Positions 1,742-51,381 of a stretch of DNA of 64,000 nt are shown in pieces. The notes beneath the pieces were generated by a model, which worked only from the letters and a program-made list of their open reading frames with translations, searched no databases and was not told the origin of the DNA. How positions within the stretch are numbered: position 1 is the stretch's first letter; each line of letters begins with the position of its first letter. The DNA lies in NCBI GenBank assembly GCA_934255455.1, contig CAKQNS010000002.1, positions 11,007-75,006 of the forward strand, written 5' to 3'. A program made the translations under genes and the position numbers. Source of the stretch: an uncultured Alphaproteobacteria bacterium (GTDB taxonomy: Bacteria; Pseudomonadota; Alphaproteobacteria; Rs-D84).

Positions 1742-1768
1742 AAATGCGCCGATGGCGCATTTTTTATT
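1742..1768 (-). terminator. Intrinsic terminator (hairpin gcgccgatggcgc plus T-run) at the 3' end of family gene g1; part of the CTCTAAAAA-hairpin module
   Basis: GC hairpin flanked by an A-run and T-run immediately after stop codon 1764-1766 on the minus strand. Confidence 0.6.
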
Positions 1769-2195
1769 CTATCCAAATCGCGGCGTATGTGGTGGCATTT
1801 TGCCCACCAACCGGAATTTTTACATTACCCTTGGTCACGGTGACTTTACCATCGGTCTGGGATACATCGGTCACCACCGCACCCGTACCCGACGATGTGG
1901 AATCCAGCCCACTGATTGCTTCGGTCACGGCCTTTTGCGTCATTGCACCATCAGTGTTTGTACCTGTGGATGTATACAATTTGGTCACACCGGCCGTGGT
2001 ACCCGTACCCGTTGAATATGTCGTATCGGTTGCAGAAATAACAATTTTACCGGCATTCGCACCATTGGTTGGGGTTGAAACCGTGACATTATCCCCCGAA
2101 ACAATATTGGTTTTCGCCACAATATCCGCAAACGCCCCCGACCCCATAAACACGGCAACAAACAAACCGATAAAAATACCCCTAATAATTATCAT
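1764..2195 (-). CDS. Secreted Thr/Gly-rich protein, short member (g1) of the five-gene tandem family
   Basis: Signal peptide MIIIRGIFIGLFVAVFMGSGAFA. C-terminus …NATTYAAIWIE shares the Trp-containing C-terminal motif of the downstream paralogs. The ORF track starts at TTG 2210; an internal ATG at 2195 is the likely start. Confidence 0.5.
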   Translation of the reverse strand: MIIIRGIFIGLFVAVFMGSGAFADIVAKTNIVSGDNVTVSTPTNGANAGKIVISATDTTYSTGTGTTAGVTKLYTSTGTNTDGAMTQKAVTEAISGLDSTSSGTGAVVTDVSQTDGKVTVTKGNVKIPVGGQNATTYAAIWIE

Positions 2196-2282
2196 AGCCC
2201 TTGCATTCAAATATACACAATATTACCAAGACACATTCATAGTATGGCACCGCTGTCACGGCACCATACTATGCACGTTATA

Positions 2283-3341: not shown

Positions 3342-3418
3342 TTTTCTTTCCTTTGCTTTCATTTATCAAAATTTATGCCATGGCACGCCAAACACGTACC
3401 ACGGCACTCGGTTATTTA

Positions 3419-4279
3419 TTATTCACCTGTAGCCGGGTTTTCATTCTCGGCGCGTTCAATAACTTCCCATGCGTATGCGGCGTTGTTATATGTCAAAACA
3501 CACTTGTTTGTCGGATTCTCACATTCGCCTGCTGGCTTTGGAATCGCTTCGTTAGCGGTTTTTTGTGCGGCATCCGCAGCGGACTTTGCTGTGGCGGCAT
3601 CCTCTACCCCCTTGTCTGCCTGGGTCTTGGCCTCTGTAATTTTTCCATCCAACGCAGTGTCGGCCGCAGTGTACGCATTTGTAATCGTGGTTGTTGCCGC
3701 GTCAATTTTATAATCAACCGAGCCCTCGGTGGTTTTATCGGCGTTCAATTTTGTAATTGCACTTGTATTTGTGCCAATGTTTGTTTCATTGGTGGAAACG
3801 CGCCCTTCCAATGTCGTTAAATCGGTTGAAACCGCATCAGCCGCATTTTTCGCAATTTCTTCGGCAACAGCAACGGTCGGGAACTTTACACCCTTGTCGG
3901 TTGCATCTTTATTGTATGTTGTTTCTTTATTCGCAGAATCTTCTTTGTCTTTTTTCAAACCATCAATTGCAGTTTTGTTTTCACCAATTGACGTTGTATG
4001 ACCAGCAATTGCGTTTTTATTTGCTTCGATATCCGCCTTGATTGTTTTATCATCGTACGCAGTGCCCGTACCATCGATTGTGATTTTGCCATCAACAATT
4101 TTCACATCGATACCATTTGAACCAGCAAGATTTGCATCCGCCCCCTCAACTTTCAATGTGTCTTGCTTTTTGCCGACCTCTTGGTCAACATATCCACGCG
4201 ATGCAACGGCGGCGTCGGCGCTGTTTGCGGCGACAATCCCCAACATTACGGTAAATATACCTGCGGTTAATTTTTTCAT
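3419..4279 (-). CDS. Secreted protein g3 of the tandem family
   Basis: Start MKKLTAGIF… with signal peptide. Same 5' upstream sequence (ttttttcatttttctttcctttc) as g2. Shared N-terminal domain with g2. C-terminus IPKPAGECENPTNKCVLTYNNAAYAWEVIE matches the C-terminal box of g4. Confidence 0.75.
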   Translation of the reverse strand: MKKLTAGIFTVMLGIVAANSADAAVASRGYVDQEVGKKQDTLKVEGADANLAGSNGIDVKIVDGKITIDGTGTAYDDKTIKADIEANKNAIAGHTTSIGENKTAIDGLKKDKEDSANKETTYNKDATDKGVKFPTVAVAEEIAKNAADAVSTDLTTLEGRVSTNETNIGTNTSAITKLNADKTTEGSVDYKIDAATTTITNAYTAADTALDGKITEAKTQADKGVEDAATAKSAADAAQKTANEAIPKPAGECENPTNKCVLTYNNAAYAWEVIERAENENPATGE

Positions 4280-4318
4280 TTTTCTTTCCTTTCTTTTTTT
4301 ATTGTTTTTTTAATTTGT

Positions 4319-5515
4319 TTATTCCAACGGTTCTGTCACATCCATCCAGTATGGGTTGCCATCCTTATCAACCGACAACACGCAACGTCCGGATTCGGCC
4401 GTGCAATTAACGCCTGGTTTCGGTACCGCGTATGCGGTCACGGCCTTGACGGATGTGTATTTGGTTGTGGAATCTTTGTCGGCGGTCGAAATCGCATCAA
4501 CACGGTTGGTGGTCTTTTCAACGCCATTTAATTCCGTCGTGATGTCGTTTTTGGTTGCCAAATCAGAAATTTTTGTTGTGGACATTTCATATTGCCCGGT
4601 TGCATTCACGGTTGCGATGCCGCCCGCGGTTTCGGCGGTCACACCGGTGACCTTGTCTGCCTTGGCCGCGACGGTGGTCGCCACGCCATCAATACGGGTG
4701 CCCAATGCGGTGTCGGCCTCGGTCAATGTGCTGACAGAATCGTCAACCAATGTATTCACCGCCTTGGCCGTTGGATATTGGTCGTCGGTCGAGGCCGCCG
4801 AAATTGTTGTCGTTTTGTTCGATACATCTTCCTTGCCCGCGACAGATGTTTTTAACGATGAAATATCGGTTTTATTCGTGTCAACCTGGGTCGATACGGT
4901 GCTCAACGCGGTTGCCGTGGCCAAATCGGTAATTTTGGTCGAAGAGGCTTCGTATTGGCCGCTTGCGTTCACGGTTGCGATGCCACCGGTGTTCGCCTCG
5001 GTCATACCAGAAACTTTATCAGCCTTGGCCGCCAATGCGTCGCCCATGTCGCCCGCGACAATTTGCGCAACTTTGTCTTCGGTAAATTTAACGATTGCAC
5101 CAACCGATGGATACAGTGTGCCCGACGCCTTGTTCTGGTCGGTAATTTCGGTTGCCTTGTTTGATGTATCTTCTTTGCCGGTCACGGCTTCTTGTAATGC
5201 GGCGACATTTGTTTCGGTCGTGCCAACACGCGTTGTCAAACCGTTCACCGTATTGTTGGTTGTTGTCAATGCCGCATTTGTTGCCAAATCGTCAATCTTG
5301 GTTGTTGAAACCTGGTATTGGCCATTTGCGTCAACCGTTGCGATGTTGCCGGCATTGTCGCCAACATTTGCAACCACGTTCGCCTTGGTGCCCGCCAAAT
5401 TATCAACATAGGCCTGGCTGGCAATTCGTTTTGCCGCCCCATCGGCCGCAGACGCCGCACCAACCGACATGATTGCCGCCATAAATCCAGAAAATGCGAT
5501 ATTATTTATTTTCAT
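4319..5515 (-). CDS. Secreted protein g4 of the tandem family
   Basis: Signal peptide MKINNIAFSGFMAAIMSVGAASA. ASQAYVDNLAGTK N-box. Repeated GIATVNASGQYE(A/M)S(S/T)TKI(T/S)DLAT units. C-terminus YAVPKPGVNCTAESGRCVLSVDKDGNPYWMDVTEP. RBS AAGGAAAAAA. Confidence 0.75.
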   Translation of the reverse strand: MKINNIAFSGFMAAIMSVGAASAADGAAKRIASQAYVDNLAGTKANVVANVGDNAGNIATVDANGQYQVSTTKIDDLATNAALTTTNNTVNGLTTRVGTTETNVAALQEAVTGKEDTSNKATEITDQNKASGTLYPSVGAIVKFTEDKVAQIVAGDMGDALAAKADKVSGMTEANTGGIATVNASGQYEASSTKITDLATATALSTVSTQVDTNKTDISSLKTSVAGKEDVSNKTTTISAASTDDQYPTAKAVNTLVDDSVSTLTEADTALGTRIDGVATTVAAKADKVTGVTAETAGGIATVNATGQYEMSTTKISDLATKNDITTELNGVEKTTNRVDAISTADKDSTTKYTSVKAVTAYAVPKPGVNCTAESGRCVLSVDKDGNPYWMDVTEPLE

Positions 5516-5560
5516 CTGTTTTTTCCTTGGTTATATCTTCGTTACTGTTTCCCGGTTTTA

Positions 5561-6973
5561 CTATGGTTCCACAATTACAATCTCGGACCACGCGCCACCA
5601 CCATTACCATCGGCCGCAAATATATAGTTGCCAGCCGTTTCGGGCGCCGTCATGCCACCAGTTGCCGAAATGGTATCGCCATCAATCGTGATGTTCGTGC
5701 CCGCGGTCAATTTATTTTGCTTGCCCGCCAACGCGGTGTTGATGTCGGTCTTGGTGTAATATTGGTCCGCATCAAATGTACCAGATTGGGTAATTTTCGC
5801 ATCAACCTCGGTCTTGGTATATGCGTCACCAATGCCATATCCCGCCAGGGTTGTTGCCTTGTCCGCCTTGGTCGCGATTGATGCAGTGTTTGCCTCTATC
5901 GCGGCGGTATTTGCATCTATGGCATTTTTATTTGCACTGATGTTTGTGGCATTCGCACCAATCAATGTACGCACCGCCGTGTCGTCATACGATTTCGCCG
6001 AAATGGTATCGCCATCAATCGTGATGTTCGTACCCGCGGTCAATTTATTTTGTTTGTCCGCCAATGCCGTGTTCGTTTCGGTCTTGGTATAATATTGTTC
6101 CGCATCAAATGTACCAGAATCACGGATTTTCGCATCAACTTCGGCCTTGGTATAAACATCCGTCTTGGCCGCATAGATTGCCGACAGTGCACTGATTGCA
6201 TCTGCAATCGCGGTGTTCATTTGCTCTGTTGTGGAATATGCACTTAAATCCGCCGGAGTACCGGGTTCACCCGCCGGCCCCTGGGGCCCAGTGATTTCCG
6301 CCTTGGAAATCAGAATTCGCCAATCAGCATCACCCTCGCCCGCATAGCGCCATAACAGGTCGTTGTCATTTGAACCAATTTCAACCTCGCGCCCATCCTG
6401 GCCGGCGATGCTGCCTATTTCGTCTTTTAACCCATCAACATCAACATAAATTTGATTTGTTGTATTATCAATTACAATAAAACCGTTCAGTGTCGGTTCC
6501 AGCGTATCTTGTTTGTCACCCAATTGGCTTGATAAACTATCGTCCGCTTGGTGCAGTTCCTCGGTATCGCGCTGTAATTGGTCAATTTGACGACGCAAAT
6601 CCGCCACAACCGACGGATCAGTTGTACCACCTTCGCCCGGTTCCGGACGCACAGAACTGCCCCCGCTGACGGATGTGGTGCCCCCCAAATATTTTCCAAT
6701 AGATAAACGCGGTGTTGTTGCCACACGACCCGTTGTTGTTGCGGCCACCGGCTTTGCCGTCGCCGTCGTGCCGGTTTTACCAGCCGTTGGTGTCACACGC
6801 AATGACCCCGCACGCGCCGCACCGGTCGATGTTGCATTTGATGCGGCCGACGCACTGGAGTATGTTCCAGCCCCACCCAGCGAACGCACCGACGATGCCG
6901 CGTCAGCCCCGGAAACCGTGGCGCACACCGCACACACAATCGCAAGTATCGATATTTTGGTGTTATTTTTCAT
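5561..6973 (-). CDS. Secreted protein g5 of the tandem family; collagen-like triplet and phage-tail-fibre-like repeats
   Basis: Signal peptide MKNNTKISILAIVCAVCATVSGADA. KQDTL box as in g2/g3. …WRILISKAEITGPQGPAGEPGTP… Two ~55-aa direct repeats YTK(A/T)EVDAKI…GTFDA(E/D)QYYTKT…LA(D/G)KQNKLTAGTNITIDGDTISA. C-terminus …GGGAWSEIVIVEP. Confidence 0.75.
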   Translation of the reverse strand: MKNNTKISILAIVCAVCATVSGADAASSVRSLGGAGTYSSASAASNATSTGAARAGSLRVTPTAGKTGTTATAKPVAATTTGRVATTPRLSIGKYLGGTTSVSGGSSVRPEPGEGGTTDPSVVADLRRQIDQLQRDTEELHQADDSLSSQLGDKQDTLEPTLNGFIVIDNTTNQIYVDVDGLKDEIGSIAGQDGREVEIGSNDNDLLWRYAGEGDADWRILISKAEITGPQGPAGEPGTPADLSAYSTTEQMNTAIADAISALSAIYAAKTDVYTKAEVDAKIRDSGTFDAEQYYTKTETNTALADKQNKLTAGTNITIDGDTISAKSYDDTAVRTLIGANATNISANKNAIDANTAAIEANTASIATKADKATTLAGYGIGDAYTKTEVDAKITQSGTFDADQYYTKTDINTALAGKQNKLTAGTNITIDGDTISATGGMTAPETAGNYIFAADGNGGGAWSEIVIVEP

Positions 6974-29434: not shown

Positions 29435-29718
29435 TGCGCCGCTGCATACCACTGAAATGGGTGCGGCGCGCATTAGGGGAAACCTGGGGCTGGCGGCGGA
29501 TGCCGATGTTGTGCGATTTTGCCGCGATGCGATTTATGGCGCCGAAATTATCCACCACGGAAAAAATTACTATGCCACACACCGCGATTTGGTGATTACA
29601 ATAAACGCAACATCATTCACGATAATAACCGCACACAAAATCAAGCAGCCACACCAGTGATTGACAATTTGATTTTTTGTATTATATTACACAAGCAATA
29701 AACAAGGAAAATATTAAA

Positions 29719-30234
29719 ATGACAAATTTAAGTAAAGTGGCACAGATACACAAAAGCCATAAAAAGAAGAATACTTATATAGTACACCTGGACGGCGAAT
29801 TTAATATGCCAGCATTCTGGGAAGAATTCAGCAAATCGCCATTGACCATTTTGGCCAAAAACGGCGAAACGGTTCAAGAAGTCGGCCGCTGTATGCGTTG
29901 CACCAAATTCCCAAACCCTGGCGCAATTCAAATGCATCGCGAATATCGCTATTTGGCCAAGGTAGATAAAAAATTGGCGTCAACCGTTGTTGAATATTTG
30001 GACAAGGACACCGGCGCACCGGTAGCATTATTGTACCCAACAGACCTGTATGTGTATGAAGAATATCGTGACAACGATTTCTTGGCACATTTGAATCATG
30101 CGTCACGTCAAGATTTTGCCCGCCAAATGGATTTGCGCACCAAAATGCTGGACAAGGCAATCACCATGGGCCAAGGATTACAAATAACGAGAAAAAAATG
30201 GCAAGCACAAAACACAAAAACACATACATTGTAA
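29719..30234 (+). CDS. Hypothetical cytoplasmic protein, paralog A of a tandem pair
   Basis: ATG 29719 with RBS AAGGAAAA. Shares K(K)NTYIV…DG…FPNPGA…EY…KLAST(V/I)VEYLDKD…PV…LYPT…HLNHA(S/T)R(Q/R)D…RQ with the next gene. No known domain recognised. Confidence 0.55.
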   Translation: MTNLSKVAQIHKSHKKKNTYIVHLDGEFNMPAFWEEFSKSPLTILAKNGETVQEVGRCMRCTKFPNPGAIQMHREYRYLAKVDKKLASTVVEYLDKDTGAPVALLYPTDLYVYEEYRDNDFLAHLNHASRQDFARQMDLRTKMLDKAITMGQGLQITRKKWQAQNTKTHTL

Positions 30235-30632
30235 AAATTGATGGCACAATGGCCGACTTGCAGGCCTTTGCCATGTGCGACCACGCTCCACTGCCAGTCG
30301 TCACATTTAATGGGGCGCCGGTTAAACAAAATGCCGGCGGGTGGATGAACTCGGTTCGTTTTCCAAACCCAGGGGCATCGTATATGTCATCGGAATATAA
30401 AAATATCGTTCCCCACTTTGGCGAAAAATTGGCATCAACAATTGTTGAATACCTGGACAAAGATAACAAAACGCCAGTTGTATATTTATACCCAACAATT
30501 ATTTTGGTTTGTGATGGATATAGTGAAACATATCAAACGCACCTTAATCATGCAACGCGTCGCGATTTGGTTCGTCAAATCAAAAAACGCATGGAAGCAT
30601 TAAATAGAATGGAACAACAAAAACAACTATAA
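30198..30632 (+). CDS. Hypothetical cytoplasmic protein, paralog B of a tandem pair
   Basis: 144 aa. Clear homolog of 29719-30234 (see motifs). Start overlaps the 3' end of paralog A in another frame. Confidence 0.55.
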   Translation: MASTKHKNTYIVKIDGTMADLQAFAMCDHAPLPVVTFNGAPVKQNAGGWMNSVRFPNPGASYMSSEYKNIVPHFGEKLASTIVEYLDKDNKTPVVYLYPTIILVCDGYSETYQTHLNHATRRDLVRQIKKRMEALNRMEQQKQL

Positions 30633-30640
30633 CAAAAACA

Positions 30641-30668
30641 CCGGCAATGCCGGTGCTTTTGTTTTCCC
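30641..30668. terminator. Bidirectional terminator (caccggcaatgccggtg flanked by A/T runs)
   Basis: Between convergent genes 30198-30632 (+) and 30679-32154 (-). Confidence 0.65.
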
Positions 30669-30678
30669 ACATCTTTGT

Positions 30679-32154
30679 TTATTGGATACCGACGCGGAAC
30701 TCGTCACCCCAACCGGCGACGGCCTGGCCGCCAACGGTACATTGCAGGGCATCAAAACCTTTTTCAACTTGATTTTTCTTGACCACATGGCTGGTAACCA
30801 AACCACCGGTCGTTCCCAGTACAACCGCAGCAATGGAATCTGATGCCAAACGTGCGGTGTTGAAATTACCCTCGGCATCTTTCCACACGGTCACCTTGAA
30901 ATCATCTTGCATGCTGTCCAATTTGCTGATGATACCACTGATTTTATTGCGCGATGTTGTTTGCTGAACCGACAACTGCGCCGCCGCGGCGTTTTGCGCC
31001 TGTTGGTTTTGCGCTGAAATAAGCGCACGCAATTGCGCCATTAAACTGTTAAATTTAATCGAATCGCGATTGCTGTCATTTGTACAGAATTCTAAAATCG
31101 CATTGATTTTGTTTTGAATTTCGGCGTTTGTTGCATATTGTTCCAACCAGGCATACAACATATTCAAATCAGATTCCGCACAGGTATATGTGGATTGGTT
31201 GTTATTATTTTGCACAACTGTGGCGCCAACACAACTGCGGCTTGATGCATTAAATGTTTTTGTCGCATCAACACATGTGCAATTCGTACCGTTCCATGTT
31301 GCAACCGACGATGGCATATAACAACATGCCTTGCCCTCGGCCGAGGAACGCGAATTCAAACATTTTTGCAACGCGCCACTTTGTACGACGCCCTTGGCCA
31401 CACATTTTTTGTTGACTGCGTCCCACACATGTTTATCGCCACAATTGCATGCCGTGCCATTCCAATTTGTAGGCTCACCCCGGGCGGCGGCCGCCACACA
31501 ATCGGACTGGGCCGCGGTCGCGCCACCATTTGATGTGTTATTACTTGCAATGCCCGCGACCGAACATTTGCCATTATTTACCACCATACCTTCAATACAC
31601 TTGGTCGCCTTGCATACAAATTTTGGTCCCTCGCGGCAAACACCTTCAAATTCAACACCATTTTGATCGGTCATTTCAATACCGCTGCATTCGATTTTGG
31701 TCAAAACACGTACGGCGCCATCCTTCATCAAATGTTGTCCAACCGGAACATCACCAAACGAATTTGTTTTGCAGACGCCGTCCTGCAATTCTTCCCACCG
31801 GTCATTTCCACCCTTGCCACCACGGAATAACAATTCCGTTTTACAGATGTACGATGCCTTGTGATTGATTATTTGTCCCTTGAATACATGTCCGACCGGC
31901 ATAGTCACAGATTGCCCCGTGGTATACCCACCAGAATTATATGCGTCACATTCGTATGCGTACCCACCACCAGAATTTTTATGTCCGGTCGTTTCATACC
32001 CATTTTTCGCCATATTATACTGTGTCGCATTTTCATACAAAAATTCGTCATCATCTGGTTTTTGTGAACCCTCGTAACTGATGATGGTTGCGCCGGCCGC
32101 AAATACCGACATTGGTGCCATTGCCAAAAACAAAACTGCTAGTATTTTTTTCAT
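30679..32154 (-). CDS. Secreted cysteine-rich repeat protein (hypothetical)
   Basis: Signal peptide MKKILAVLFLAMAPMSVFA. About 30 Cys. Internal duplicated unit (T/N)WNGT(A/N)C(N/T)C(G/V)D…(K/S)(K/R)CV(A/G)…VVQ. Cys-free Gln/Ala-rich C-terminal ~150 aa. Confidence 0.6.
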   Translation of the reverse strand: MKKILAVLFLAMAPMSVFAAGATIISYEGSQKPDDDEFLYENATQYNMAKNGYETTGHKNSGGGYAYECDAYNSGGYTTGQSVTMPVGHVFKGQIINHKASYICKTELLFRGGKGGNDRWEELQDGVCKTNSFGDVPVGQHLMKDGAVRVLTKIECSGIEMTDQNGVEFEGVCREGPKFVCKATKCIEGMVVNNGKCSVAGIASNNTSNGGATAAQSDCVAAAARGEPTNWNGTACNCGDKHVWDAVNKKCVAKGVVQSGALQKCLNSRSSAEGKACCYMPSSVATWNGTNCTCVDATKTFNASSRSCVGATVVQNNNNQSTYTCAESDLNMLYAWLEQYATNAEIQNKINAILEFCTNDSNRDSIKFNSLMAQLRALISAQNQQAQNAAAAQLSVQQTTSRNKISGIISKLDSMQDDFKVTVWKDAEGNFNTARLASDSIAAVVLGTTGGLVTSHVVKKNQVEKGFDALQCTVGGQAVAGWGDEFRVGIQ

Positions 32155-32284
32155 TCTCTTTCTCCGTAATCATGGGACGCGGTGCATTCCCATTCATATT
32201 CATCGTGTATATTTTATCATAAAACAGGCCCCAATCCAAGAGATAAACTTAAAATTAAAACCGCGCCATTTGCGCGGTTGTGCA

Positions 32285-33568
32285 TTATTTGCATTCGGCA
32301 ACCAATTGATTTATTTGCGCCGCCAAAACCAAATCTGTCTGTTTTTGTTTTTCAATTTGGGAAATAGCATATACAACCGTCGCATGGTCGCGACCGCCAA
32401 CATAACCGCCAATTTCAGACAACGACAACCCTGTTGCAGATTTCAACACCGCCATCATAACCTGGCGCGCCATAACCAATGCGCGACTGCGTCCACGGCC
32501 ACATACCGCATCATACGAAACACCCAATTTTTCGCACATTGCACGCACCATAGAAATTGGTGTTTTTGCGCGTTGTAATGTGTCGGCCAACAAACGCGAC
32601 GCAACATTCATGTCAACCGGCATTCCCATCAAATCATTATATGTTTTGATTTTCATAATAACGCCGCGAACTAAATGACCATCGGCCGCCGTGCGATGCG
32701 CCAATTCGGTTGCAACATCCGACGCAACCCCCGCACGCAACAACATTACACGACGAACATTTTCATTTGGTTGAACCATATCTGCAACCAAGCCCGACGC
32801 CATCAACGATTGTGCACGACGATCAAAACCAGTCAAATTACCCGGTGCCGCATTTGCCGTTAAAACGATGTTTTTACCGGCACTGCGCAAATCCATAATC
32901 AGTTGCATAAATTCTTCGCATGTGGCACGTTTACCAGCCAACATTTGAACATCATCCATAATAAATGTATCACAATTGCGGCAGTAATCTTTGAATGCGA
33001 AAATTGTGCGGTCATGCAACGCGCGTGCAAATTCCGAAACAAAATTACCACCAGTCATCATAATGGTGCGACCCACCGCAGCCGAATTGATGCAACGCGC
33101 CAACAACGATTTACCGCAACCCGCCGGGCCATAAATAAACAACGGCGAGAATGGTACACACCCCGCCGCCAATTTTTTGCATGCCGACACGACAAACGCA
33201 TTTTCGTCGGACGCAACAAATTCTTCGAATGTTGCGGTTGTCGCATCATCAGTCGCGCGCGCCGCCGGTGCATAGGATTGAACCGCGTTATCATTCGCAA
33301 CGGTTGCCGGCGCAACCGCCGCACCGCGCACCGCAATGCGCACCGCCAAACCAAATTCCGCCGCAACCGCGTTTAATGTTGCACCATGCACCCCCGAAAT
33401 AAAATCGGCCGAGAATTGATTTTGCGCGGTCAACACCAGTGTATTATCAGCAATTTCAAAATTCAGTGGGGAAATCCAGGACGAGAACGCAGCAGAATCC
33501 ATTTTTGCGGCAATGGCCCCCTTGATAACTTCCAAGTTAGTCATTTTTATTGTCGCCGCTGCCTGCAT
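32285..33568 (-). CDS. dnaA: Chromosomal replication initiator DnaA
   Basis: N-terminal domain (…FSSWISPLNFEIADNTLVLTAQNQF…), AAA+ (IYGPAGCGKSLL, …DDVQML…), C-terminal DNA-binding helix-turn-helix (…LSLSEIGGYVGGRDHATVVYAISQIE…). ATG 33568 chosen for its strong RBS AAGGAAGGAG; the ORF track starts at GTG 33628. Confidence 0.85.
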   Translation of the reverse strand: MQAAATIKMTNLEVIKGAIAAKMDSAAFSSWISPLNFEIADNTLVLTAQNQFSADFISGVHGATLNAVAAEFGLAVRIAVRGAAVAPATVANDNAVQSYAPAARATDDATTATFEEFVASDENAFVVSACKKLAAGCVPFSPLFIYGPAGCGKSLLARCINSAAVGRTIMMTGGNFVSEFARALHDRTIFAFKDYCRNCDTFIMDDVQMLAGKRATCEEFMQLIMDLRSAGKNIVLTANAAPGNLTGFDRRAQSLMASGLVADMVQPNENVRRVMLLRAGVASDVATELAHRTAADGHLVRGVIMKIKTYNDLMGMPVDMNVASRLLADTLQRAKTPISMVRAMCEKLGVSYDAVCGRGRSRALVMARQVMMAVLKSATGLSLSEIGGYVGGRDHATVVYAISQIEKQKQTDLVLAAQINQLVAECK

Positions 33569-33627
33569 GTCGTTTCTCCTTCCTTTCAGAGTTTCCTGCC
33601 AGCGCAAGAGTGTAAAAATCACCTGCA

Positions 33628-33671
33628 CATAAACGCTAAATTTTACTGTTCCATAAAATTTAGTGTTTATG
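33628..33671. promoter_or_regulatory. 18-bp inverted repeat (cataaacgctaaatttta-N8-taaaatttagtgtttatg) ~60 bp upstream of dnaA
   Basis: Near-perfect palindrome in the dnaA 5' region, followed by an AT-rich 200-bp intergenic stretch. Confidence 0.4.
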
Positions 33672-33873: not shown

Positions 33874-34905
33874 TCATATACGAATATATCCACTGTCAAC
33901 TTTTCGTACCAAACCCTGTAATTCCAGCACAACTAAATCGCGCTTAATTTCCGAAATATTTTTTTTGACAATTTCTGCCAATACAGATTCGGACACCGGA
34001 ATCGTCCCCAGTTTATCCAACAAGGAATTTTCACCCGTATCTTTTTTTGTTTTTTTCTGCAACGATTGGGAATTATTTTCCAGTTCTGGAAAATCGGGTA
34101 CCCCAACGCACAACTCTGCCGCCCCCGATTTTATCAGCGAATTTGGCCCCGCGCCGCGGGAATCCGCCGGATGCGACGGAATTGCATATATTTTACGGCC
34201 AAATTCCTGTGCGAATCGGGCGGTGTGCATACTGCCAGATTTCTTGTCGGCCTCGCCCAATATCAATTTTTGGCCGATTCCTGCGACCCAGCGATTGCGT
34301 TGCACAAAATTTGATGCAATTGGCGACATGCCAACTGGCATTTCACTGATCACCACCCCGCGCGAAACAATTTCCCAATACAGCGATTCGTTTTCAATCG
34401 GCCAAATGTTATCGCACCCACCCGCCAGAACGGCAATTGTTTGGGCATTGCCATCCGCGCGCAACGCACCACGATGCGCCGCCGCATCGGTACCAATTGC
34501 CATACCAGACACAACCGCAATGCCATGCGCGGCAAAATTCGTTGCCAAATTCGCCATAAATTCCATACCCGCCGCGGTTGCATGACGCGTGCCAACCATT
34601 GCGACGGCCGGGCACCGCAATGTTTCCAAATTTCCGCGTGCCGATAACACCGGTGGATGATTTTTCAGCACCCGCAACGCCGCCGGATAATACGCATCGG
34701 TGTCACATATATAATGTATGTCCAATTCTGCCGCACGGTCCATTTCACGCCGCACCGACGCAACATGCGCATCATCCGCCCCCAGGGACGCCGCCGCCGC
34801 ACGAACATCACCACCGAATCGGTCCAGCAATTTACCATAGTTCACCGGCCCAATATTCGGCATACGCAAAATCAATAATCTTTCAAACAAATCAGACATA
34901 TTCAT
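33874..34905 (-). CDS. dprA: DNA processing protein A (DprA/Smf)
   Basis: Rossmann-like DprA core (…AVAMVGTRHATAAGMEFMANLATNFAAHGIAVVSGMAIGTDAAAHRGAL…ILGEADKKSGSMHTA…) and C-terminal winged-helix-like tail. Confidence 0.85.
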   Translation of the reverse strand: MNMSDLFERLLILRMPNIGPVNYGKLLDRFGGDVRAAAASLGADDAHVASVRREMDRAAELDIHYICDTDAYYPAALRVLKNHPPVLSARGNLETLRCPAVAMVGTRHATAAGMEFMANLATNFAAHGIAVVSGMAIGTDAAAHRGALRADGNAQTIAVLAGGCDNIWPIENESLYWEIVSRGVVISEMPVGMSPIASNFVQRNRWVAGIGQKLILGEADKKSGSMHTARFAQEFGRKIYAIPSHPADSRGAGPNSLIKSGAAELCVGVPDFPELENNSQSLQKKTKKDTGENSLLDKLGTIPVSESVLAEIVKKNISEIKRDLVVLELQGLVRKVDSGYIRI

Positions 34906-34983
34906 ACTATAAGAAATATTACCCATATAATAAAAGTAAAAAAAGCGCCCCAGTCGGGGCGCCAATATAAATGCGACACTATA

Positions 34984-35820
34984 TTACGCTTCCAATGCAC
35001 GGATTAAATCGTCGTAATCCAAATTTGTGCATTCGGCGGGCTTGCCAACCGTATTCCAAATGCTGTTTTCACATTCGGCCTTTAATTCTTTCAGGCTTTG
35101 TAAAAACGCACTGTATTGTGTTGGTTTTTCTTTCTTTAACGCCAACAATTGACTGCGCAGCAATTCATCATCGGCCAATGCCTTTTGTCCCTGGACCTTG
35201 CCGCCAATCAGTTTATTTCCGAACAATTCCATTACACCAACACCAACGCCGGCGCCACCAACCGCGCCACCAACGGTCGCCCATACGCGGGCCTTTTTCT
35301 TGGCATCCAGAATGCGTTGTTGCATTTTGGCCTCGTCCACCCAGGCACCACATGTGATATTTTGTCCCCATTCATAATACTGGGTTGGAATATCCGAAAC
35401 ATCAATGCGCGAATCGGTCGATTTCATACCAACCTTAACAAAGCATGTGTTGTTTTCTGGATTCTCGGTATCCTCGGTCATGGTGGCATAATTTGATGTA
35501 TTGCTGTACCGCGACGCCCAAACGAACGTGTTGCCAACGCCAATATTATTACTTATGCATGCCTTTTTTTCAGCCTCGCGCGTGTCAACAGCCGGCTTTT
35601 CCGGTTCGGTGGGTTCCACACGAACACTGGATTTATTATCCGACGGATTTGACATAGACATAGATGCCATCGCACTCAGTTGCCCCGTTGATGCCGTGGC
35701 ACGCGGTGCACTGGCAACCATTTGCGTCTGCATTGAACGACGCGAATGTCCGGCCGCCTCTAACGCAAACGACGGCGCCACAAAAACGCTGAACACTATC
35801 AAAGAAACTATCGCTTTCAT
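34984..35820 (-). CDS. Hypothetical secreted protein
   Basis: Signal peptide MKAIVSLIVFSVFVAPSFA. Gly-rich GGAVGGAGVGVGV segment. No recognisable domain. Confidence 0.5.
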   Translation of the reverse strand: MKAIVSLIVFSVFVAPSFALEAAGHSRRSMQTQMVASAPRATASTGQLSAMASMSMSNPSDNKSSVRVEPTEPEKPAVDTREAEKKACISNNIGVGNTFVWASRYSNTSNYATMTEDTENPENNTCFVKVGMKSTDSRIDVSDIPTQYYEWGQNITCGAWVDEAKMQQRILDAKKKARVWATVGGAVGGAGVGVGVMELFGNKLIGGKVQGQKALADDELLRSQLLALKKEKPTQYSAFLQSLKELKAECENSIWNTVGKPAECTNLDYDDLIRALEA

Positions 35821-35934
35821 TATGGAATCCCCCACTACTTTGGTGGGTATTATACCACAAAATCGACCAAAAATAAAGGCCAAATGCAATACCGCAAAAA
35901 AATCGGGCCGCAAATTACGCGACCCACAATTGAT

Positions 35935-36876: not shown

Positions 36877-36936
36877 TGGCGCACATTTGGTGCGCCTTTT
36901 GTTGTATAAAAAACGCCCAGCGGGCGTTTTTTCTTT
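36877..36936. terminator. Two consecutive intrinsic terminators (ggcgcacatttggtgcgcc; aacgcccagcgggcgtt) after rpsT
   Basis: Each hairpin is followed by a T-run. Confidence 0.65.
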
Positions 36937-37026: not shown

Positions 37027-38655
37027 TTAATTCAATGGTGCGCCCCAATGCTGTTGGATACTGCGTTCTGCATCCATCGGACTGACCAATACCTGGGGAG
37101 TCAAGATAACCACCAGTGTATCACGCGTGGCCGATGTTTCGCGCGACCCCGACAGTGCCATAAAGTCCGGATCACCCAAGCCATAACGCGTATCGTTATT
37201 GGTCTGTTTTTCAAATCCAGATACAACCAACATCTGGCCAGATTCCATAATAACTTCTTGCATGAAACTGCGCTCTTCAACCTCGGGCAATTGCAATGTG
37301 ACCTCGCCAATGGTTTGGGTTGACATTTTCAGCAATTCGCGAACCGACATACGGAACAGCAACAGAATCTTGCCATTTTCCAAAACATTCGGCAACAATT
37401 GCATTGAAAATCCGGTTTCCAAATCGTCCTGGTCAACGGTGCTGGATTCAACCGTTGTGAAATTACGCGATTCAAAACGTTTGATATAGCCGGTCGTTTT
37501 GGTGTTGTTTACAGGCGCAACGCGGTTGCTGCGCGTTGTCACACCAACATTTGTCACCAACGATACCTTGCCCTGTTTGGCCAAAGCCTCTATCAATGCA
37601 TTACTGCCCGCGCCACGCGCCAACGAACCGTTTTGAATTTGGTTCTGGGTATATGCACCGGCGACCGTAGAACCATTTTCTAAATGTGTTGCCCCCGTCA
37701 GTGCCGATACGGTGTTTGACAAAACAGCAATGTTCATGGAACTGGCCTCGGTCGTGGCAAGGTTATTTTTTGGATTCGCCACAATGTTCAATCCAGACGC
37801 ACTGTTGATGGCCGCCGCCAAATTCAATCCAAACGCCGAATCGTTAGACACAGATACCTGCAAAACCTTGACATCAATTGTCACCAATTGCGACAGCCGC
37901 TTGTTTTGTTTGTTGATATAATCGCCAACACGTGTCAATACCGACGGTGGCGCGGTCACGGTAATGGTTCCCAAACTGCGCGACACGGTGAACTCGGCGT
38001 TTTCAGATTTTCCGATAATACCGGAAATGGCCTTTTCAATTTCATCCCATTCTTTTAATGTAGATTCCAATGCGACCTGGTTTCCGTCATCGGTTTGAAC
38101 CGCGGTCTGGTATGAAACATCGGTTCCCAGTGCATATAATGTAAATGTTTTGGTTTCCGTTTCATAAAATACAATTGATGTTTTGTCATAATACCACAGC
38201 AAATCTAAATCGGTTGCAACCTGGGATAACAGGCCCGACAATTTGCCGGTATACGCAACATTGATGGTCTTTTTCAATTTTTCGGAATTTACCTGGCTGT
38301 CAATTTTAACCGGCAATCCGGTAATAGAATTAATGTCATTTGCCAAAACCTGTAATGTGACGGGGTCATTCAACAGAATTGTCACACCGGTATCGGTTTC
38401 GAAACGCGATGGCAAATTATTGCGATGTTCCAGCACGGTCGATTTGTTGCCCAACCATACGCCCTCGGACATGGAAACAGTGTCACCACTGGCAACCTTG
38501 GCACGAGGATTTTTAGACATTTCAAACGCATCGTACGCGTTGATAAAATCCTGGTCAACCTTGGCGGCAACCTTGGCCGATTCCTTGGTGGTGCACCCCG
38601 CCAGCGCAACCGCCAACGCACCACACGCAAATAATACTTTCATTGTTTTTATCAT
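37027..38655 (-). CDS. Lipoprotein secretin of the type IVb pilus family (PilN/TcpC/BfpB-like)
   Basis: ATG 38655 with RBS GGAGAG. Lipobox LAGC. C-terminal secretin domain (…GQMLVVSGFEKQ…RYGLGDPDFMALSGSRETSATRDTLVVILTPQVL…). ~540 aa, the size of R64 PilN and BfpB. 37 bp after the TcpQ-like gene. Confidence 0.7.
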   Translation of the reverse strand: MIKTMKVLFACGALAVALAGCTTKESAKVAAKVDQDFINAYDAFEMSKNPRAKVASGDTVSMSEGVWLGNKSTVLEHRNNLPSRFETDTGVTILLNDPVTLQVLANDINSITGLPVKIDSQVNSEKLKKTINVAYTGKLSGLLSQVATDLDLLWYYDKTSIVFYETETKTFTLYALGTDVSYQTAVQTDDGNQVALESTLKEWDEIEKAISGIIGKSENAEFTVSRSLGTITVTAPPSVLTRVGDYINKQNKRLSQLVTIDVKVLQVSVSNDSAFGLNLAAAINSASGLNIVANPKNNLATTEASSMNIAVLSNTVSALTGATHLENGSTVAGAYTQNQIQNGSLARGAGSNALIEALAKQGKVSLVTNVGVTTRSNRVAPVNNTKTTGYIKRFESRNFTTVESSTVDQDDLETGFSMQLLPNVLENGKILLLFRMSVRELLKMSTQTIGEVTLQLPEVEERSFMQEVIMESGQMLVVSGFEKQTNNDTRYGLGDPDFMALSGSRETSATRDTLVVILTPQVLVSPMDAERSIQQHWGAPLN

Positions 38656-38694
38656 ATTACTCTCCAAGATTCCCAGTTTCACACGCACCATTTA

Positions 38695-39585
38695 TTATTC
38701 TTCGGATGTTGTAATTACCAACACACGGTTTCCTTTATAAAATTTCGCATACGGAACTGGTGTCGCGCGCCCAAAATTACGAACCAATGCCGATGCTACA
38801 TCAACAAAGCGACCCTTGAACACGGCGCTGGCCTCTATCGGATATTCACGCGATGTCGCCCATACTAAATCCCAGCCCTCTTTGTCGCACCAGTTTTGCA
38901 GAACCTCGCGCAATGTTTGACCATTTGCAACAACCCACGAACGAACTTGGTCGGTCAATTTCTGGGCTGGTTCCGCATCGGCAGATGTGTCAACCGCGAT
39001 TTCTTTTTCTTCGACAATTTCACCATTTTCGTCGGTAATTGTTTTTGTCATTCCCATCTTGGCCGCGAACGCCGCATATCCATCAGATGCATTGTTGCAA
39101 TTTTTGCGACCACTGCGTGACACGGTCAGAACACTGCCCCCGTCATCTTCCAACATTTCGCGGTGCAGCAATGGCATTTCGGAACCATTATTGCATTCGT
39201 CATCAAATCCGACCGGGATCTGGTTGCCATGCAACATATTCGCCCCGCCCGACCAATCGCCATATCCGTTAGTCGCCAGATTGAAATTATTTTCCACAAC
39301 CAAATCGTTGCCAATTTTGGAAACAATTCTGATATTGTCAGATGTCGCCGATTTTTCGCACGCCGCATCACCACAGGCAACCGTAACATCGGCATCAGAC
39401 CCGGCAATCGGCCACACCGGAACCGGCATCTGCGTTTCCTGGCTGTCAACATATTGATTTTCATCAACCACATTTTCCTGGGTATAGAAAACCTCGCTCG
39501 TGACGACCTGGGGCAAAGATTCCGCCGCAAAGCAATAGCCCGCCGCGGTTGCAAACATTGCGACAATCAAAAATTTACGGAACAT
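38695..39585 (-). CDS. TcpQ/PilL-like pilus biogenesis protein (secretin partner)
   Basis: Signal peptide MFRKFLIVAMFATAAGYCFA. C-terminal …GQTLREVLQNWCDKEGWDLVWATSREYPIEASAVFKGRFVDVASALVRNF matches the TcpQ-family C-terminal domain pattern. RBS AAGGAAG before ATG 39585. Confidence 0.55.
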   Translation of the reverse strand: MFRKFLIVAMFATAAGYCFAAESLPQVVTSEVFYTQENVVDENQYVDSQETQMPVPVWPIAGSDADVTVACGDAACEKSATSDNIRIVSKIGNDLVVENNFNLATNGYGDWSGGANMLHGNQIPVGFDDECNNGSEMPLLHREMLEDDGGSVLTVSRSGRKNCNNASDGYAAFAAKMGMTKTITDENGEIVEEKEIAVDTSADAEPAQKLTDQVRSWVVANGQTLREVLQNWCDKEGWDLVWATSREYPIEASAVFKGRFVDVASALVRNFGRATPVPYAKFYKGNRVLVITTSEE

Positions 39586-39761
39586 AAAAACTTCCTTTAC
39601 TGAATAAGTTGTTTCATTTATTGCACTTATTATAACAATTTGACCGAATCTGTGCAAGACCAAATCGCACCCAACAAATTTAATATTTTCAAGATAAAAT
39701 CGCACGAATCGGTAAAAGATGTTATACTGTTCGTGTTTAATACGACATACGGGGCGAAAAA

Positions 39762-40307
39762 ATGCAAAACATATTGATTTTAACTGGAATTTCTATTGTT
39801 ATCATCATCGGCATTGCAATTATTGTCATGCTTGTGGGAATGCGTGGCCAAATGCGCGATATTACCAAGACACAAACATACCAATACAACCTGATTGTAA
39901 AAATCCAATCTGTGCTGAAAAATAAATCGGCCACAAACGCGGTTGCTGAACATGCCGAAATGATTTACCAGGATTTATTGCAAAATTTAATTCCAATTAT
40001 GGCGGCAATTGACATTATGCCACGCGCAACGCCCGAGCATCCATTGTGGCGCGCGCTGGGCGGCATTTTGGATGAATATGGCAAAAACCCATTTGTTATG
40101 GAAAAATTGCGTCGTTGCATCAAACTGGATGCCGAGGTCGCGCGCAGTGTCGACAATTACATGAGCCGCGCCGACGGATTTTTGCAACATTTAACCACAA
40201 CCGAACCAGATGGAATATTGACATCAACATTTACCGACGGCCTGTTGGGCCAATCGTTGACATTTTTTGCCCAGGCACGTGCTCTGGCCACCCAGAATAA
40301 TGAATAA
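39762..40307 (+). CDS. Hypothetical single-pass membrane protein
   Basis: N-terminal TM ILILTGISIVIIIGIAIIVMLVGM, then ~150-aa soluble domain. Divergent from the TcpQ-like/secretin operon. Confidence 0.4.
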   Translation: MQNILILTGISIVIIIGIAIIVMLVGMRGQMRDITKTQTYQYNLIVKIQSVLKNKSATNAVAEHAEMIYQDLLQNLIPIMAAIDIMPRATPEHPLWRALGGILDEYGKNPFVMEKLRRCIKLDAEVARSVDNYMSRADGFLQHLTTTEPDGILTSTFTDGLLGQSLTFFAQARALATQNNE

Positions 40308-49842: not shown

Positions 49843-51381
49843 TCAGAACGCAAAACGTGCGTTAAATGACACACGATGCATTGTACCAAAATCGGTTGTG
49901 ATAATGCCGAATTCGGCACCACCGCCGGCGGCATCAAACACAGACCAGGCATCAATATGCAATGCAGCACCAACATCGCCCGATGTTTCGGCGCGCATAC
50001 GCAAACCATAATCGTATGTCAAATCATCCGTGCCACCATGCGTATCAATATCAACGCCAATGCCAGTGTTGCTTTTATTATCCGACTGGTGTGCCACCAC
50101 GGCACGGTTTATGCCGGCGCCCGCAAAGGGCGTAAAAACAAAATCACCATCCGGATTCAAATGAACCCCAACATCAAATTGACCATAAAAACTTTTACCA
50201 TTTGGCGCCGAACGCGTCTTGGCACCGTCCATAACAAAATCTGATTCAAATGTGGCAAACGATGCTCCAACAATGCCACGCGCCATAAATTCGCCGTTGT
50301 CATATTTTGCACCAATATTTGCACCGACAAACGAACCAACAAAATCATTTATATCGTCCGACACATCAACCATACCGGCATAACCCGCAACACCAACATT
50401 AAAATTATTTGTAAAGGCTACACCATACGACATACGCGCCGCGTTTATATTTGCTTCCGCATTTTTAATTACAATTGGCGCAATGTAAAAATCATTTTCA
50501 ATGTTCAAATTAAACATTTCAAACGCATCAAACACCCGCACAGGATTCATCAGATTTATCGGATTCAGCCGCACAGATTTTGCCATAACTCCACGCAATG
50601 CCTCGATATCCGGTGCGCCATCCATTGCGACCAGCAATCTGTCATGTGGAGACGCCGCACGCACCGAATGCAGGAAATTTCCAGTATTTGAATCAAGTAT
50701 CTTGCGATAGTCTGTTTCACGAACCGTTGTCACATACAGCTTGTCATTTTCTATGTATGTTTTGATTGCCATCAACGGATTATCATTTGGCGCAATAATT
50801 GTTGCAACGCCGGTACCACCAATATTATCAATTAAAATTCCATTGGCCAAATCACGCAACGAATTCACATACAATTTTACATTTCCAATCAATTGTATCA
50901 ACGACGTGTCTGCAATTGTGGAATCAATAACCAACGATGAATTTTCCAGAATTATGCGACCGCTGGTGCCACCAATTGAAACTATATCGCCCAACGATAA
51001 CATTTCGGCATTGCGAACTAATATTGAATAATCAACATCCGTTTCTAAATTTTTTATGTCATCTGACGAAGTTATCAATTGTGTCAAACGCGAATTTGTC
51101 CCCAAATAAAAATCGGCATCCATTGTGCCACTGTTTTTAATGCTCAACGCCATACCATCGGCGACATGAATATTGCCCTGGAACAAACCACGGTTTTCGA
51201 ACGCCAATGCCGCATCAATGTACAAATCTGAAATATAAACACCGCCACGCATATCAATATATACATCATCCGCCACATGATAATCAGACGCATACATACC
51301 ACCATAAAAGCGCTCACCGTATGATGTCGTCACCGACACCAGCGTCACAATGAAACCAAAGGCAATTTTTCCTATACGCAT
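49843..51381 (-). CDS. Autotransporter-like outer-membrane protein (passenger plus C-terminal beta-barrel)
   Basis: Signal peptide. Repetitive beta-rich N-terminal region. C-terminal ~250 aa with alternating aromatic/Gly beta-strand pattern ending …RVSFNARFAF (terminal Phe). Confidence 0.55.
   Translation of the reverse strand: MRIGKIAFGFIVTLVSVTTSYGERFYGGMYASDYHVADDVYIDMRGGVYISDLYIDAALAFENRGLFQGNIHVADGMALSIKNSGTMDADFYLGTNSRLTQLITSSDDIKNLETDVDYSILVRNAEMLSLGDIVSIGGTSGRIILENSSLVIDSTIADTSLIQLIGNVKLYVNSLRDLANGILIDNIGGTGVATIIAPNDNPLMAIKTYIENDKLYVTTVRETDYRKILDSNTGNFLHSVRAASPHDRLLVAMDGAPDIEALRGVMAKSVRLNPINLMNPVRVFDAFEMFNLNIENDFYIAPIVIKNAEANINAARMSYGVAFTNNFNVGVAGYAGMVDVSDDINDFVGSFVGANIGAKYDNGEFMARGIVGASFATFESDFVMDGAKTRSAPNGKSFYGQFDVGVHLNPDGDFVFTPFAGAGINRAVVAHQSDNKSNTGIGVDIDTHGGTDDLTYDYGLRMRAETSGDVGAALHIDAWSVFDAAGGGAEFGIITTDFGTMHRVSFNARFAF

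Follow-up and report, generated by a model that had tools for sequence, protein, structure and literature searches.

Here, we report that two adjacent genes in a 64,000-nucleotide stretch of contig CAKQNS010000002.1 (assembly GCA_934255455.1; the whole of this stretch is called the window below), from an uncultured alphaproteobacterium of the Rs-D84 lineage, very probably make up a small operon through which Candidatus Enterousia builds the outer-membrane half of a machine for type IVb pili. The upstream gene encodes a partner protein of the TcpQ/BfpG family and the downstream gene a lipoprotein secretin, and together their products match the two chains of one solved complex, BfpB-BfpG from the bundle-forming pilus (BFP) of enteropathogenic Escherichia coli (EPEC; PDB 9u5s). 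The machine is split into at least three loci amid housekeeping genes, namely this partner-secretin pair, a pilO2-pilP-ATPase-platform block and a pilin gene. A preliminary description, made from the sequence of the window, had read the pair as a stand-alone type IVb pilus module; both of its open reading frames are confirmed, on the minus strand, and its interpretation is supported and now extended by the motor block, although 'stand-alone' was an overstatement for a pair that belongs to a machine encoded at several loci.

The secretin gene begins with an ATG at 38655 that has GGAGA just 5' of it; some gene callers choose an in-frame ATG upstream, at 38691, which gives a product of 554 aa. 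As the preliminary description had proposed, the protein is a lipoprotein of about 540 aa with a C-terminal secretin domain. It matches the Pfam secretin profile PF00263 (E=1.2e-13, 168 of 169 profile positions covered) and, in NCBIfam, TIGR02520, the PilN family of type IVB secretins (E=3.6e-70, 237 bits), against 92.6 bits for MshL and 29.5 bits for SctC in the same search. GspD gave no match in NCBIfam or among PDB sequences, and the sole match at E<0.01 among all PDB sequences was BfpB (9u5s_A, E=1.4e-39), with a collinear alignment across secretin residues 33–116, 123–302 and 348–523. With PilN at 237 bits, the other families at or below 93 and BfpB the only PDB match, comparison at the sequence level supports placing the protein with PilN/BfpB, and not with GspD, RcpA, MshL or SctC. 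In a tblastn search of 72,556 plasmids, 2,918 records matched, every one at less than 60% identity; 12 of the 15 matches listed are annotated as PilN family secretins, with identities of 24–37% among the matches listed.

A signal peptide with an LAGC lipobox (Cys21) opens the secretin, followed by LG, N0 and N3 domains and by the secretin domain proper (~346–523), and the chain ends ~20 residues past the latter, with no S-domain. BfpB is of similar size (535 aa, compared with 542 aa here), has the LG, N0, N3 and secretin domains in collinear order, and likewise lacks an S-domain. A search with the secretin retrieved 80 species-representative genomes (85–99% identity), labelled Candidatus Enterousia or uncultured Alphaproteobacteria/Rickettsiales and originating from human, ruminant, horse, rabbit and chicken guts; one of them is a chromosome-level metagenome-assembled genome (MAG) of 958,618 bp whose isolate name marks it as circular. 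The lipobox cysteine is invariant in 80/80 orthologues, and position +2 is Ala or Thr. As judged from these sequences, a lipobox stands in place of a C-terminal S-domain and pilotin, as in type IVb lipoprotein secretins, and lipidation is predicted.

In EPEC, the lipidated N-terminal LG domain of BfpB binds two adjacent BfpG molecules through its C-terminal part (beta1, hydrophobic linker, beta2), and is followed by N0 and by an N3 domain whose hairpin forms a third barrel, without an S-domain; the partner-binding residues of BfpB are reported to be functionally important (PMC12531336). The LG domain of the Enterousia secretin aligns to BfpB residues 14–96, with the partner-binding region at residues 58–76. 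Here, BfpB M39-V-S41-K-T43-D-S-I46-Y47-I48-G49-N-S51-S-F53 is aligned to T-V-S-M-S-E-G-V-W-L-G-N-K-S-T, the counterpart of I46-Y47-I48-G49 being V-W-L-G, and the strand-linker-strand motif is kept, with its aromatic residue, hydrophobic residue and Gly. The segment D58-T-V-S-M-S-E-G-V-W-L-G69 is almost invariant across the 80 species-level genomes, and the predicted partner-binding interface is the most conserved portion of the secretin N-terminus. Opposite the BfpB hairpin Y198-V235, the alignment of N3 shows an insertion of just ~24 residues, versus 38 in BfpB, and without the Ser/Gly-rich loop.

The partner gene starts with an ATG at 39585, with AAGGAAG just 5' of it. Its product carries a Sec-type signal peptide (residues 1–20, MFRKFLIVAMFATAAGYCFA, ahead of AE), after which come a variable acidic spacer, a conserved middle region (~55–180), a second variable acidic spacer and a TcpQ/N0-like domain (~210–292). 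Assignment of the C-terminus to the TcpQ family, already suggested in the preliminary description, is borne out by sequence and by fold. Residues 215–292 match the Pfam TcpQ profile PF10671 with 64.7 bits (E=8.2e-18; cutoff 27), and a phmmer search of the PDB finds the BfpG chain 9u5s_R (E=2.8e-16). In an AlphaFold2 model of the partner, the C-terminal domain is the sole confident part, with a predicted local distance difference test score (pLDDT) of 80–93, and a Foldseek search with this domain again places 9u5s_R at the top (prob 1.00, target template modelling (TM) score 0.76, root mean square deviation 3.1 Å, 37% identity), so that the domain is predicted to share the N0-like fold of BfpG.

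The middle region of the partner is a conserved stretch of ~120 residues with the motifs PVWP..GSDAD, IVSKIG.DL.VENN, [WF]SGGAN and EMPL...EM.EDDG..VL. An exhaustive search of 1.84 billion cluster representatives returned 1,738 clusters (50% identity) with a TcpQ domain, whose N-terminal extensions are highly variable; since just ~25–37 of these clusters cover the middle region, it is specific to the Enterousia lineage.

Both genes lie on the same strand, the partner upstream, in an order and synteny kept in the 80 genomes; the gap between them is 39 nt, a trivial correction to the 37 first given for the two neighbours. A promoter-like site, so named for its match to the consensus, is located ~45 nt 5' of the partner ATG. 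It matches 10/12 consensus positions, joint best in the region with two others, and is the only one of the three tied sites with an extended -10 TG. At the other end, a GC-rich hairpin has a good T-run on the + strand (the rpsT side) and a weaker one on the - strand, and is probably a bidirectional terminator bounding the operon. With its start signals, promoter-like site and hairpin, the pair looks like a self-contained two-gene operon (Table 1).

Table 1 Positions in the window of the pilus genes and of the putative signals around the two-gene operon
Feature	Position	Strand	Basis
Lipoprotein secretin, PilN/BfpB/TcpC (type IVb) family, 542 aa	37027..38655	-	PF00263, TIGR02520, BfpB match
TcpQ/BfpG-family secretin partner, 296 aa	38695..39585	-	PF10671; BfpG match by sequence and fold
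Promoter-like site of the two-gene operon	39629..39656	-	TGCACA, 16-nt spacer, TATAAT, extended -10 TG
GC-rich hairpin between secretin stop codon and convergent rpsT	36878..36896	.	7-bp stem, 6 GC pairs
Candidate major pilin, 154 aa	23559..24023	-	Prepilin-like N-terminus, predicted type IVb fold

Two neighbours of the operon were considered as further components. A 181-aa protein with one N-terminal transmembrane helix is encoded divergently from the pilus operon (39762–40307, + strand), its stop codon adjacent to the sufB start; it matches no family, is found in 78/80 genomes at ~72–74% identity, and was not assigned to the pilus, as the gene abuts sufB and is probably a member of the suf operon. 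A 278/309-aa protein (34984–35913) on the other side, with no informative Pfam or NCBIfam match, was likewise not assigned.

Profile and tblastn searches of the window and 10 kb past each end (~84 kb) revealed no type IV pilus ATPase, platform protein or peptidase, in agreement with the preliminary description, which took the system to be dispersed. The best annotated relative of the secretin lies on the Methylovorus plasmid pMsip01, in a complete operon comprising TcpQ-family, PilN, PilO2, PilP, ATPase, T2SSF, pilin and further genes. We therefore looked for the remaining machine parts in Enterousia loci by tblastn with Methylovorus, IncI and Enterousia proteins. Methylovorus PilO2 led to one Enterousia locus, L083, in which pilO2 is ~9 kb from the secretin pair on the same contig, and the partial PilO2 from L083 in turn led to 877 homologues, mostly of ~420 aa; most of the homologues listed carry PF06864, and their NCBI name is 'type 4b pilus protein PilO2'. 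In these contigs, DUF374-lpxK-lpxC-lipoprotein is followed by pilO2 (420 aa), a pilP-like gene (221–233 aa), a T2SSE ATPase (~545 aa) and a T2SSF platform protein (~357 aa), and then by gyrB, in a gene order that is identical in four Enterousia species groups.

The products of this block resemble pilus motor components. Enterousia PilO2 matches PF06864 (E=1e-9), and its N-terminal domain matches BfpC (3vhj, E=6.8e-5), in line with a PilO2/BfpC relationship described previously (PMC3984277). The 233-aa pilP-like protein matches TIGR03021 (PilP, E=3.3e-8), and the platform protein matches T2SSF (E=1.5e-25). The ATPase (T2SSE, E=4.9e-65), with Walker-type motifs GPTSSGKST and DPDTLMVGEIR, is closest to BfpD (8dze, E=7.7e-78, 266 bits, nearly full length), compared with ~150 bits for PilF and GspE and ~120 bits for PilB. 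The MAG JBGUTP01 carries both modules, on separate contigs, with the secretin pair on contig 26 (L043) and the pilO2 block at ~105 kb of the 186-kb contig 16 (L102). Numbers of homologues are alike for the secretin (819), the pilin (820) and PilO2 (877), and a PilO2 cluster of 143 members is matched in size by a secretin cluster of 144 members with 94% identity to the secretin of the window, the nearest indication of the block in the window's own genome. The presence of the block elsewhere in the genus, and on a separate contig from the pair in one MAG, indicates that the machine is real but split, and the split point lies between pilN and pilO2, exactly where plasmid operons are contiguous.

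Synteny between the window (29677–33628) and L083 (13814–20165) breaks right after dnaA. Next to dnaA, the window has a gene for a secreted, Cys-rich protein of 491 aa, then two tandem paralogues that overlap (185 and 144 aa) and have KNTYIV...FPNPGA...LASTIVEYLDKD in common, and then a 659-aa GyrB/ParE-family gene. In L083, dnaA is followed by an HD-domain gene, DUF374, lpxK and lpxC, after which comes the pilO2 block. In window-type genomes, the two pilus modules have been parted by a rearrangement close to the replication origin. Just upstream of DUF374-lpxK, relatives carry a variable island (L095 538–6325; L096 534–6367), which holds an integrase, a RhuM-like gene and DUF3800 in one genome and a resolvase, an EcoRI-type methylase, GmrSD and DUF3631 in another. 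Small unannotated genes flanking the pilO2 block (146, 189, 87–98, 97, 119, 213 and 323 aa) were considered as PilM, minor pilins or a peptidase, but no product suits any of these roles; that of 323 aa is an outer-membrane beta-barrel and that of 146 aa a lipoprotein. Further upstream, ~7–9 kb from the block, are a virB3-like gene (98 aa) and a virB4/trbE gene (~809 aa; L100 1–1304, L101 426–3148, L102 450–3172), followed by unannotated 207-aa and 560-aa proteins. Given their occurrence in several contigs, Enterousia has components of type IV secretion, too, in the neighbourhood of its pilus motor genes.

Because the 80 loci were picked by secretin similarity, conservation was compared through all-against-all identities in the 50 genomes with every gene, the window excluded. 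Mean pairwise identity is 86.6% for the secretin (94.4% for the secretin domain alone) and 89.9% for the C-terminal domain of the partner, against 83.6% for ribosomal protein S20, 79.5% for SufB, 74.9% for PlsY, 72.4% for SufC, 69.9% for DnaA and 66.0% for DprA. For the motor block, three species could be compared, giving 82–88% for the ATPase, 76–81% for the platform protein, 57–73% for PilO2 and 58–79% for PilP, with GyrB at 88–94% and LpxC at 66% in the same species. That an envelope machine is under constraint equal to or above that of core housekeeping proteins, a sign of strong purifying selection, stands out most among the quantitative results of our analysis and, given this conservation, the pilus is probably central to how the organism lives.

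These data also bear on whether the secretin might be an orphan relic of a lost pilus or phage system, either machineless or reused as a passive pore. Such a relic would explain why no other pilus gene besides the pair and the pilin is found within ~84 kb, and a published analysis of these genomes reports no type IV pili for the lineage, mentioning them for a different lineage only (PMC12306168). The conservation of the secretin above S20, SufB and DnaA argues against it, with the pair as a whole more constrained than SufB or S20; the motor block is present in the genus, one MAG having it in the same genome as the pair; and the partner-binding interface is near-invariant and the pilin processing signature invariant. 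We consider the relic reading largely refuted and exceedingly improbable.

The candidate major pilin of the window has a 6-residue leader, MRQESG, with predicted cleavage between G6 and R7, a Glu at position +5, an extended N-terminal helix and a globular domain that bears the conserved Cys111/Cys139 pair, and is the sole protein with a prepilin-like N-terminus in the window and its 10-kb flanks. In 37 orthologues, G6 (-1), R7 (+1), E11 (+5) and C111 are invariant and C139 nearly so, and a homologue search for paralogues within an assembly operon returned orthologues only, 73–97% identical. The globular part of its AlphaFold2 model reaches a pLDDT of ~90, and the best eight Foldseek matches in the PDB are all type IVb major pilins, either CofA or TcpA, at E-values of 3e-4 to 8e-2 and modest query TM scores of 0.37–0.61; they include CofA 9iuf (E=2.9e-4, query TM 0.61), TcpA 8uhf (E=4.8e-4), TcpA 3hrv and CofA 3s0t. 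PilS of Salmonella Typhi is at rank 14, and there are no type IVa pilins or pseudopilins among the Foldseek PDB matches; in NCBIfam, the pilin weakly matches GspH (E=0.01). Since the best eight matches are all type IVb major pilins, the predicted structure has the alpha/beta-roll fold of that class and allows the 'TcpA-like' label of the preliminary description to hold at the level of the fold, and the class-III signal that it had noted stands in the invariant G(-1) and E(+5). The leader, on the other hand, is type IVa-like and not that of TcpA, and the N_methyl match is under its cutoff.

The pilin is also where a different function comes into view, in which the system is mainly a secretion device, so that a type IVb pilus or pseudopilus would export soluble proteins and not act as an adhesive fibre. 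One pilin gene and no retraction ATPase were found in the DNA searched, and NCBI and JGI call the pilin a type II secretion pseudopilin. Many surface or secreted proteins with signal peptides, for which no exporter is known, are encoded in the window, and, among known type IVb systems, the toxin-coregulated pilus (TCP) of Vibrio cholerae secretes TcpF and the colonization factor antigen III (CFA/III) pilus secretes CofJ. The predicted pilin fold, however, retrieves major type IVb pilins and not GspG-type pseudopilins, and the secretin, partner, ATPase and PilO2 are each closest to pilus systems, which makes a device mainly for secretion unlikely. Secretion and adhesion are compatible in type IVb systems, and by analogy with these the pilus proposed here may also export proteins.

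Genomes of Enterousia and its order, Rs-D84, are small (~0.75–1.0 Mb; Candidatus Enterousia ~0.9 Mb), and the lineage has been described as genome-reduced, with flagella, respiratory chains and standard transporters all missing and glycolysis missing in part; a partner-dependent lifestyle was suggested for it (PMC12306168). The genes of the window are housekeeping throughout, comprising sufBCD, plsY, rpsT, dprA, dnaA, a GyrB/ParE-family gene, dnaJ, pgsA, uvrC and rluD, as well as asmA, dnaN, tolB/pal, ftsEX, gatCAB, tatABC, lolA and recJ. One of them, dprA (~33874–34926, confirmed by PF02481), is ~2 kb from the operon and had led the preliminary description to propose DNA uptake, and a competence pilus could be of benefit to a genome-reduced organism through scavenged DNA (PMC12306168). 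The link is a weak one, consisting of co-location among housekeeping genes: dprA is within a housekeeping run (plsY, rpsT, dnaA) and is less conserved than the pilus genes (66% versus 87%), and comEA and comEC were not seen in the Enterousia DNA inspected. Moreover, dprA is common in non-competent bacteria, and the competence pili known from Gram-negative bacteria belong to type IVa and use PilQ-type secretins, in contrast to the parts identified here, all of which are type IVb. A DNA-uptake pilus is therefore very unlikely.

Comparison with known systems places the machine more closely. Besides the secretin architecture, it shares with the EPEC BFP an N0-like partner domain of the BfpG type; its ATPase comes nearest to BfpD, and the N-terminal domain of its PilO2 matches BfpC. 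There are also differences. Overall secretin identity is low, at 24–30% to plasmid PilN proteins, and the partner, at 296 aa, has an extra conserved middle region and two spacers, whereas the BfpG chain in 9u5s has 114 aa. The genes here are chromosomal, in at least three loci amid housekeeping genes, while the BFP is encoded by a 14-gene plasmid operon, and counterparts of BfpF, P, H, I, J, K, L and U were not found in the ~130 kb of distinct Enterousia DNA that was searched. With the TCP, the machine shares the order of Q before C genes, the combination of a TcpQ-family domain with a lipoprotein secretin, and the predicted globular fold of the pilin. It differs in having PilO2 and PilP (in Enterousia), which to our knowledge are not part of the TCP, and equivalents of TcpB, R, D, S, F and J were not identified in the DNA searched.

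The thin pilus of R64/IncI plasmids has the same gene order, in which a TcpQ-domain protein and a PilN secretin precede PilO2, PilP, ATPase and platform protein; in Enterousia congeners, PilO2 (PF06864) and PilP (TIGR03021) are encoded beside the ATPase and platform genes. In Enterousia, a break separates pilN from pilO2 and the pilin is encoded apart, a Sec signal opens the partner where PilL has a lipobox, there is no link to a plasmid or an integrative and conjugative element (ICE), and identity to IncI proteins is just 25–29%. PilM, PilV or a shufflon, a PilT-type transglycosylase and PilU, as well as a relaxase, were not found in the window or the Enterousia loci searched (~130 kb). Chromosomal or ICE-borne relatives of the R64 thin pilus are known from S. 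Typhi SPI-7, PAPI-1 and B. pseudomallei Tfp7, of which PAPI-1 and Tfp7 have no linked peptidase (pilU) and borrow one from another system (PMC3984277). In this respect they resemble the Enterousia machine, which has no dedicated peptidase linked to its pilus genes.

This kinship raises the prospect of a domesticated conjugation-type thin pilus (as in R64 PilL-V or PAPI-1) that works with a type IV secretion system (T4SS), stabilising cell pairs for the transfer of DNA or effectors. PilO2 and PilP together are hallmarks of the R64 thin-pilus variant (PMC3984277), the secretin relative on the Methylovorus plasmid, which is conjugative, adjoins a Trb T4SS, and virB3-virB4 lie ~7 kb upstream of pilO2 in several Enterousia contigs. 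In contrast, a relaxase, a shufflon and a PilV adhesin were not seen in the loci searched, the context in all ~80 species examined is one of core housekeeping genes and not of a mobile element, conservation is equal to or above that of housekeeping genes, and the ATPase and secretin are nearer to the BFP than to IncI proteins. A conjugation-type role is thus distinctly unlikely. Among known systems, the type IVb pilus machine of Enterousia stands nearest to the R64/IncI thin-pilus and BFP branches, and not to the TCP in particular. Its variant features are an operon fragmented among core genes, a lineage-specific partner domain and a small pilin with a short leader and Arg at +1.

By analogy with the BFP and R64 machines, we infer how this pilus would be assembled. 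The 542-aa lipoprotein would be exported, lipidated on Cys21 and taken to the outer membrane by the Lol pathway (lolA is in the window), where it would multimerise into a gated channel of the BfpB/PilN type. The C-terminal BfpG/TcpQ-type domain of the partner would bind the two beta-strands and the hydrophobic linker (V-W-L-G) of the secretin LG domain and, as BfpG does on BfpB, hoop the secretin ring at the level of N3; formation of this complex and its stoichiometry are predicted on the same analogy. The channel would then serve an inner-membrane motor encoded at a separate locus and made up of PilO2 (BfpC-like), PilP, the BfpD-like ATPase and the T2SSF platform, which would polymerise the candidate pilin of Table 1 into a pilus passing through the secretin. 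On this view, an ancestral R64/BFP-like operon was broken into at least three pieces, which now stand amid housekeeping genes.

Several points weigh against the type IVb pilus machine proposed here, or against parts of it. The 237 bits of the secretin are under the TIGR02520 equivalog cutoff of 287.65, so it is a divergent family member and not an equivalog, and the middle region of the partner is of low confidence in the AlphaFold2 model (pLDDT 45–57), with no fold predicted. The evidence for the pilO2 block comes from congeners (the closest probably with 94% secretin identity), and a prepilin (A24) peptidase, a minor or tip pilin, PilM and a retraction ATPase were not found in the ~130 kb searched of a genome of ~0.9 Mb. 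The N_methyl profile match of the pilin (E=0.0054) falls under the gathering cutoff, and its leader is short (6 residues, type IVa-like) with an unusual Arg at +1. Whereas TcpA has a long leader and Met at +1, and its chains in 8uhf have 191–198 residues, the mature pilin here has 148 aa; leader and length alike depart from the type IVb norm (leader ~15–30 residues, mature ~180–200 aa) and resemble those of type IVa or small R64-type pilins, although the +1 Arg is non-Phe, in that respect as in type IVb pilins. Finally, an adhesive role is read from family and lifestyle only.

The window also contains further genes for candidate surface proteins. Five tandem genes on the minus strand (1764–6973) encode signal-peptide proteins of 148, 359, 286, 398 and 470 aa with Ala/Thr-rich repeat or coiled cores, for example the ~11-residue 'DANVTTAKIAD'-type repeats in 2283–3362. 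Three of the five share 'A..YVD' after the signal peptide, their C-termini are related, two with C-x5-6-C-VL...W, and in relatives no Pfam family matches them; the five may form one family of variable fibres or adhesins at the cell surface. A 512-aa protein (49843–51381, - strand), whose C-terminal region resembles a beta-barrel and ends in RFAF, has a signal peptide and no Pfam match, and looks like an autotransporter or outer-membrane protein. On the left flank of the window's contig (L092 5386–7655), three small Cys/His-rich paralogues (144, 130 and 131 aa) adjoin an integrase-like gene (Arm-DNA-bind_3) between lepA and acpP, and may be a mobile-element remnant.

From its family and the lifestyle of the lineage, the pilus most likely serves in adhesion or in cell-to-cell contact with a partner microbe or the host mucosa, on which a bacterium with such metabolic dependence relies. 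A stronger view, possible but doubtful, is that it is an essential, lineage-defining organelle with which Enterousia (Rs-D84) attaches to and exploits a partner cell or host mucosa. If this were true, the pilus would have a functional counterpart in the type IV pili of epibiotic Saccharibacteria, it might cooperate with the nearby virB3/virB4 system, the lineage-specific middle domain of the partner and the Arg(+1) short-leader pilin would be adaptations to that role, and the dedicated peptidase not found could point to non-canonical pilin processing. The source of prepilin peptidase activity in a 0.9-Mb genome is worth finding in any case.

The machine involves no new mechanism, being a known kind of pilus, type IVb and BFP/R64-like, with a core that looks complete. 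It extends the BfpB-BfpG architecture well beyond enteric pathogens and plasmids, and it offers a clear example of an operon broken up during genome reduction with all its parts still under selection. Enterousia/Rs-D84, widespread and uncultured, live in the guts of humans, ruminants, horses and birds, and this previously unreported surface machine is a concrete candidate for the means by which they contact a partner or host.

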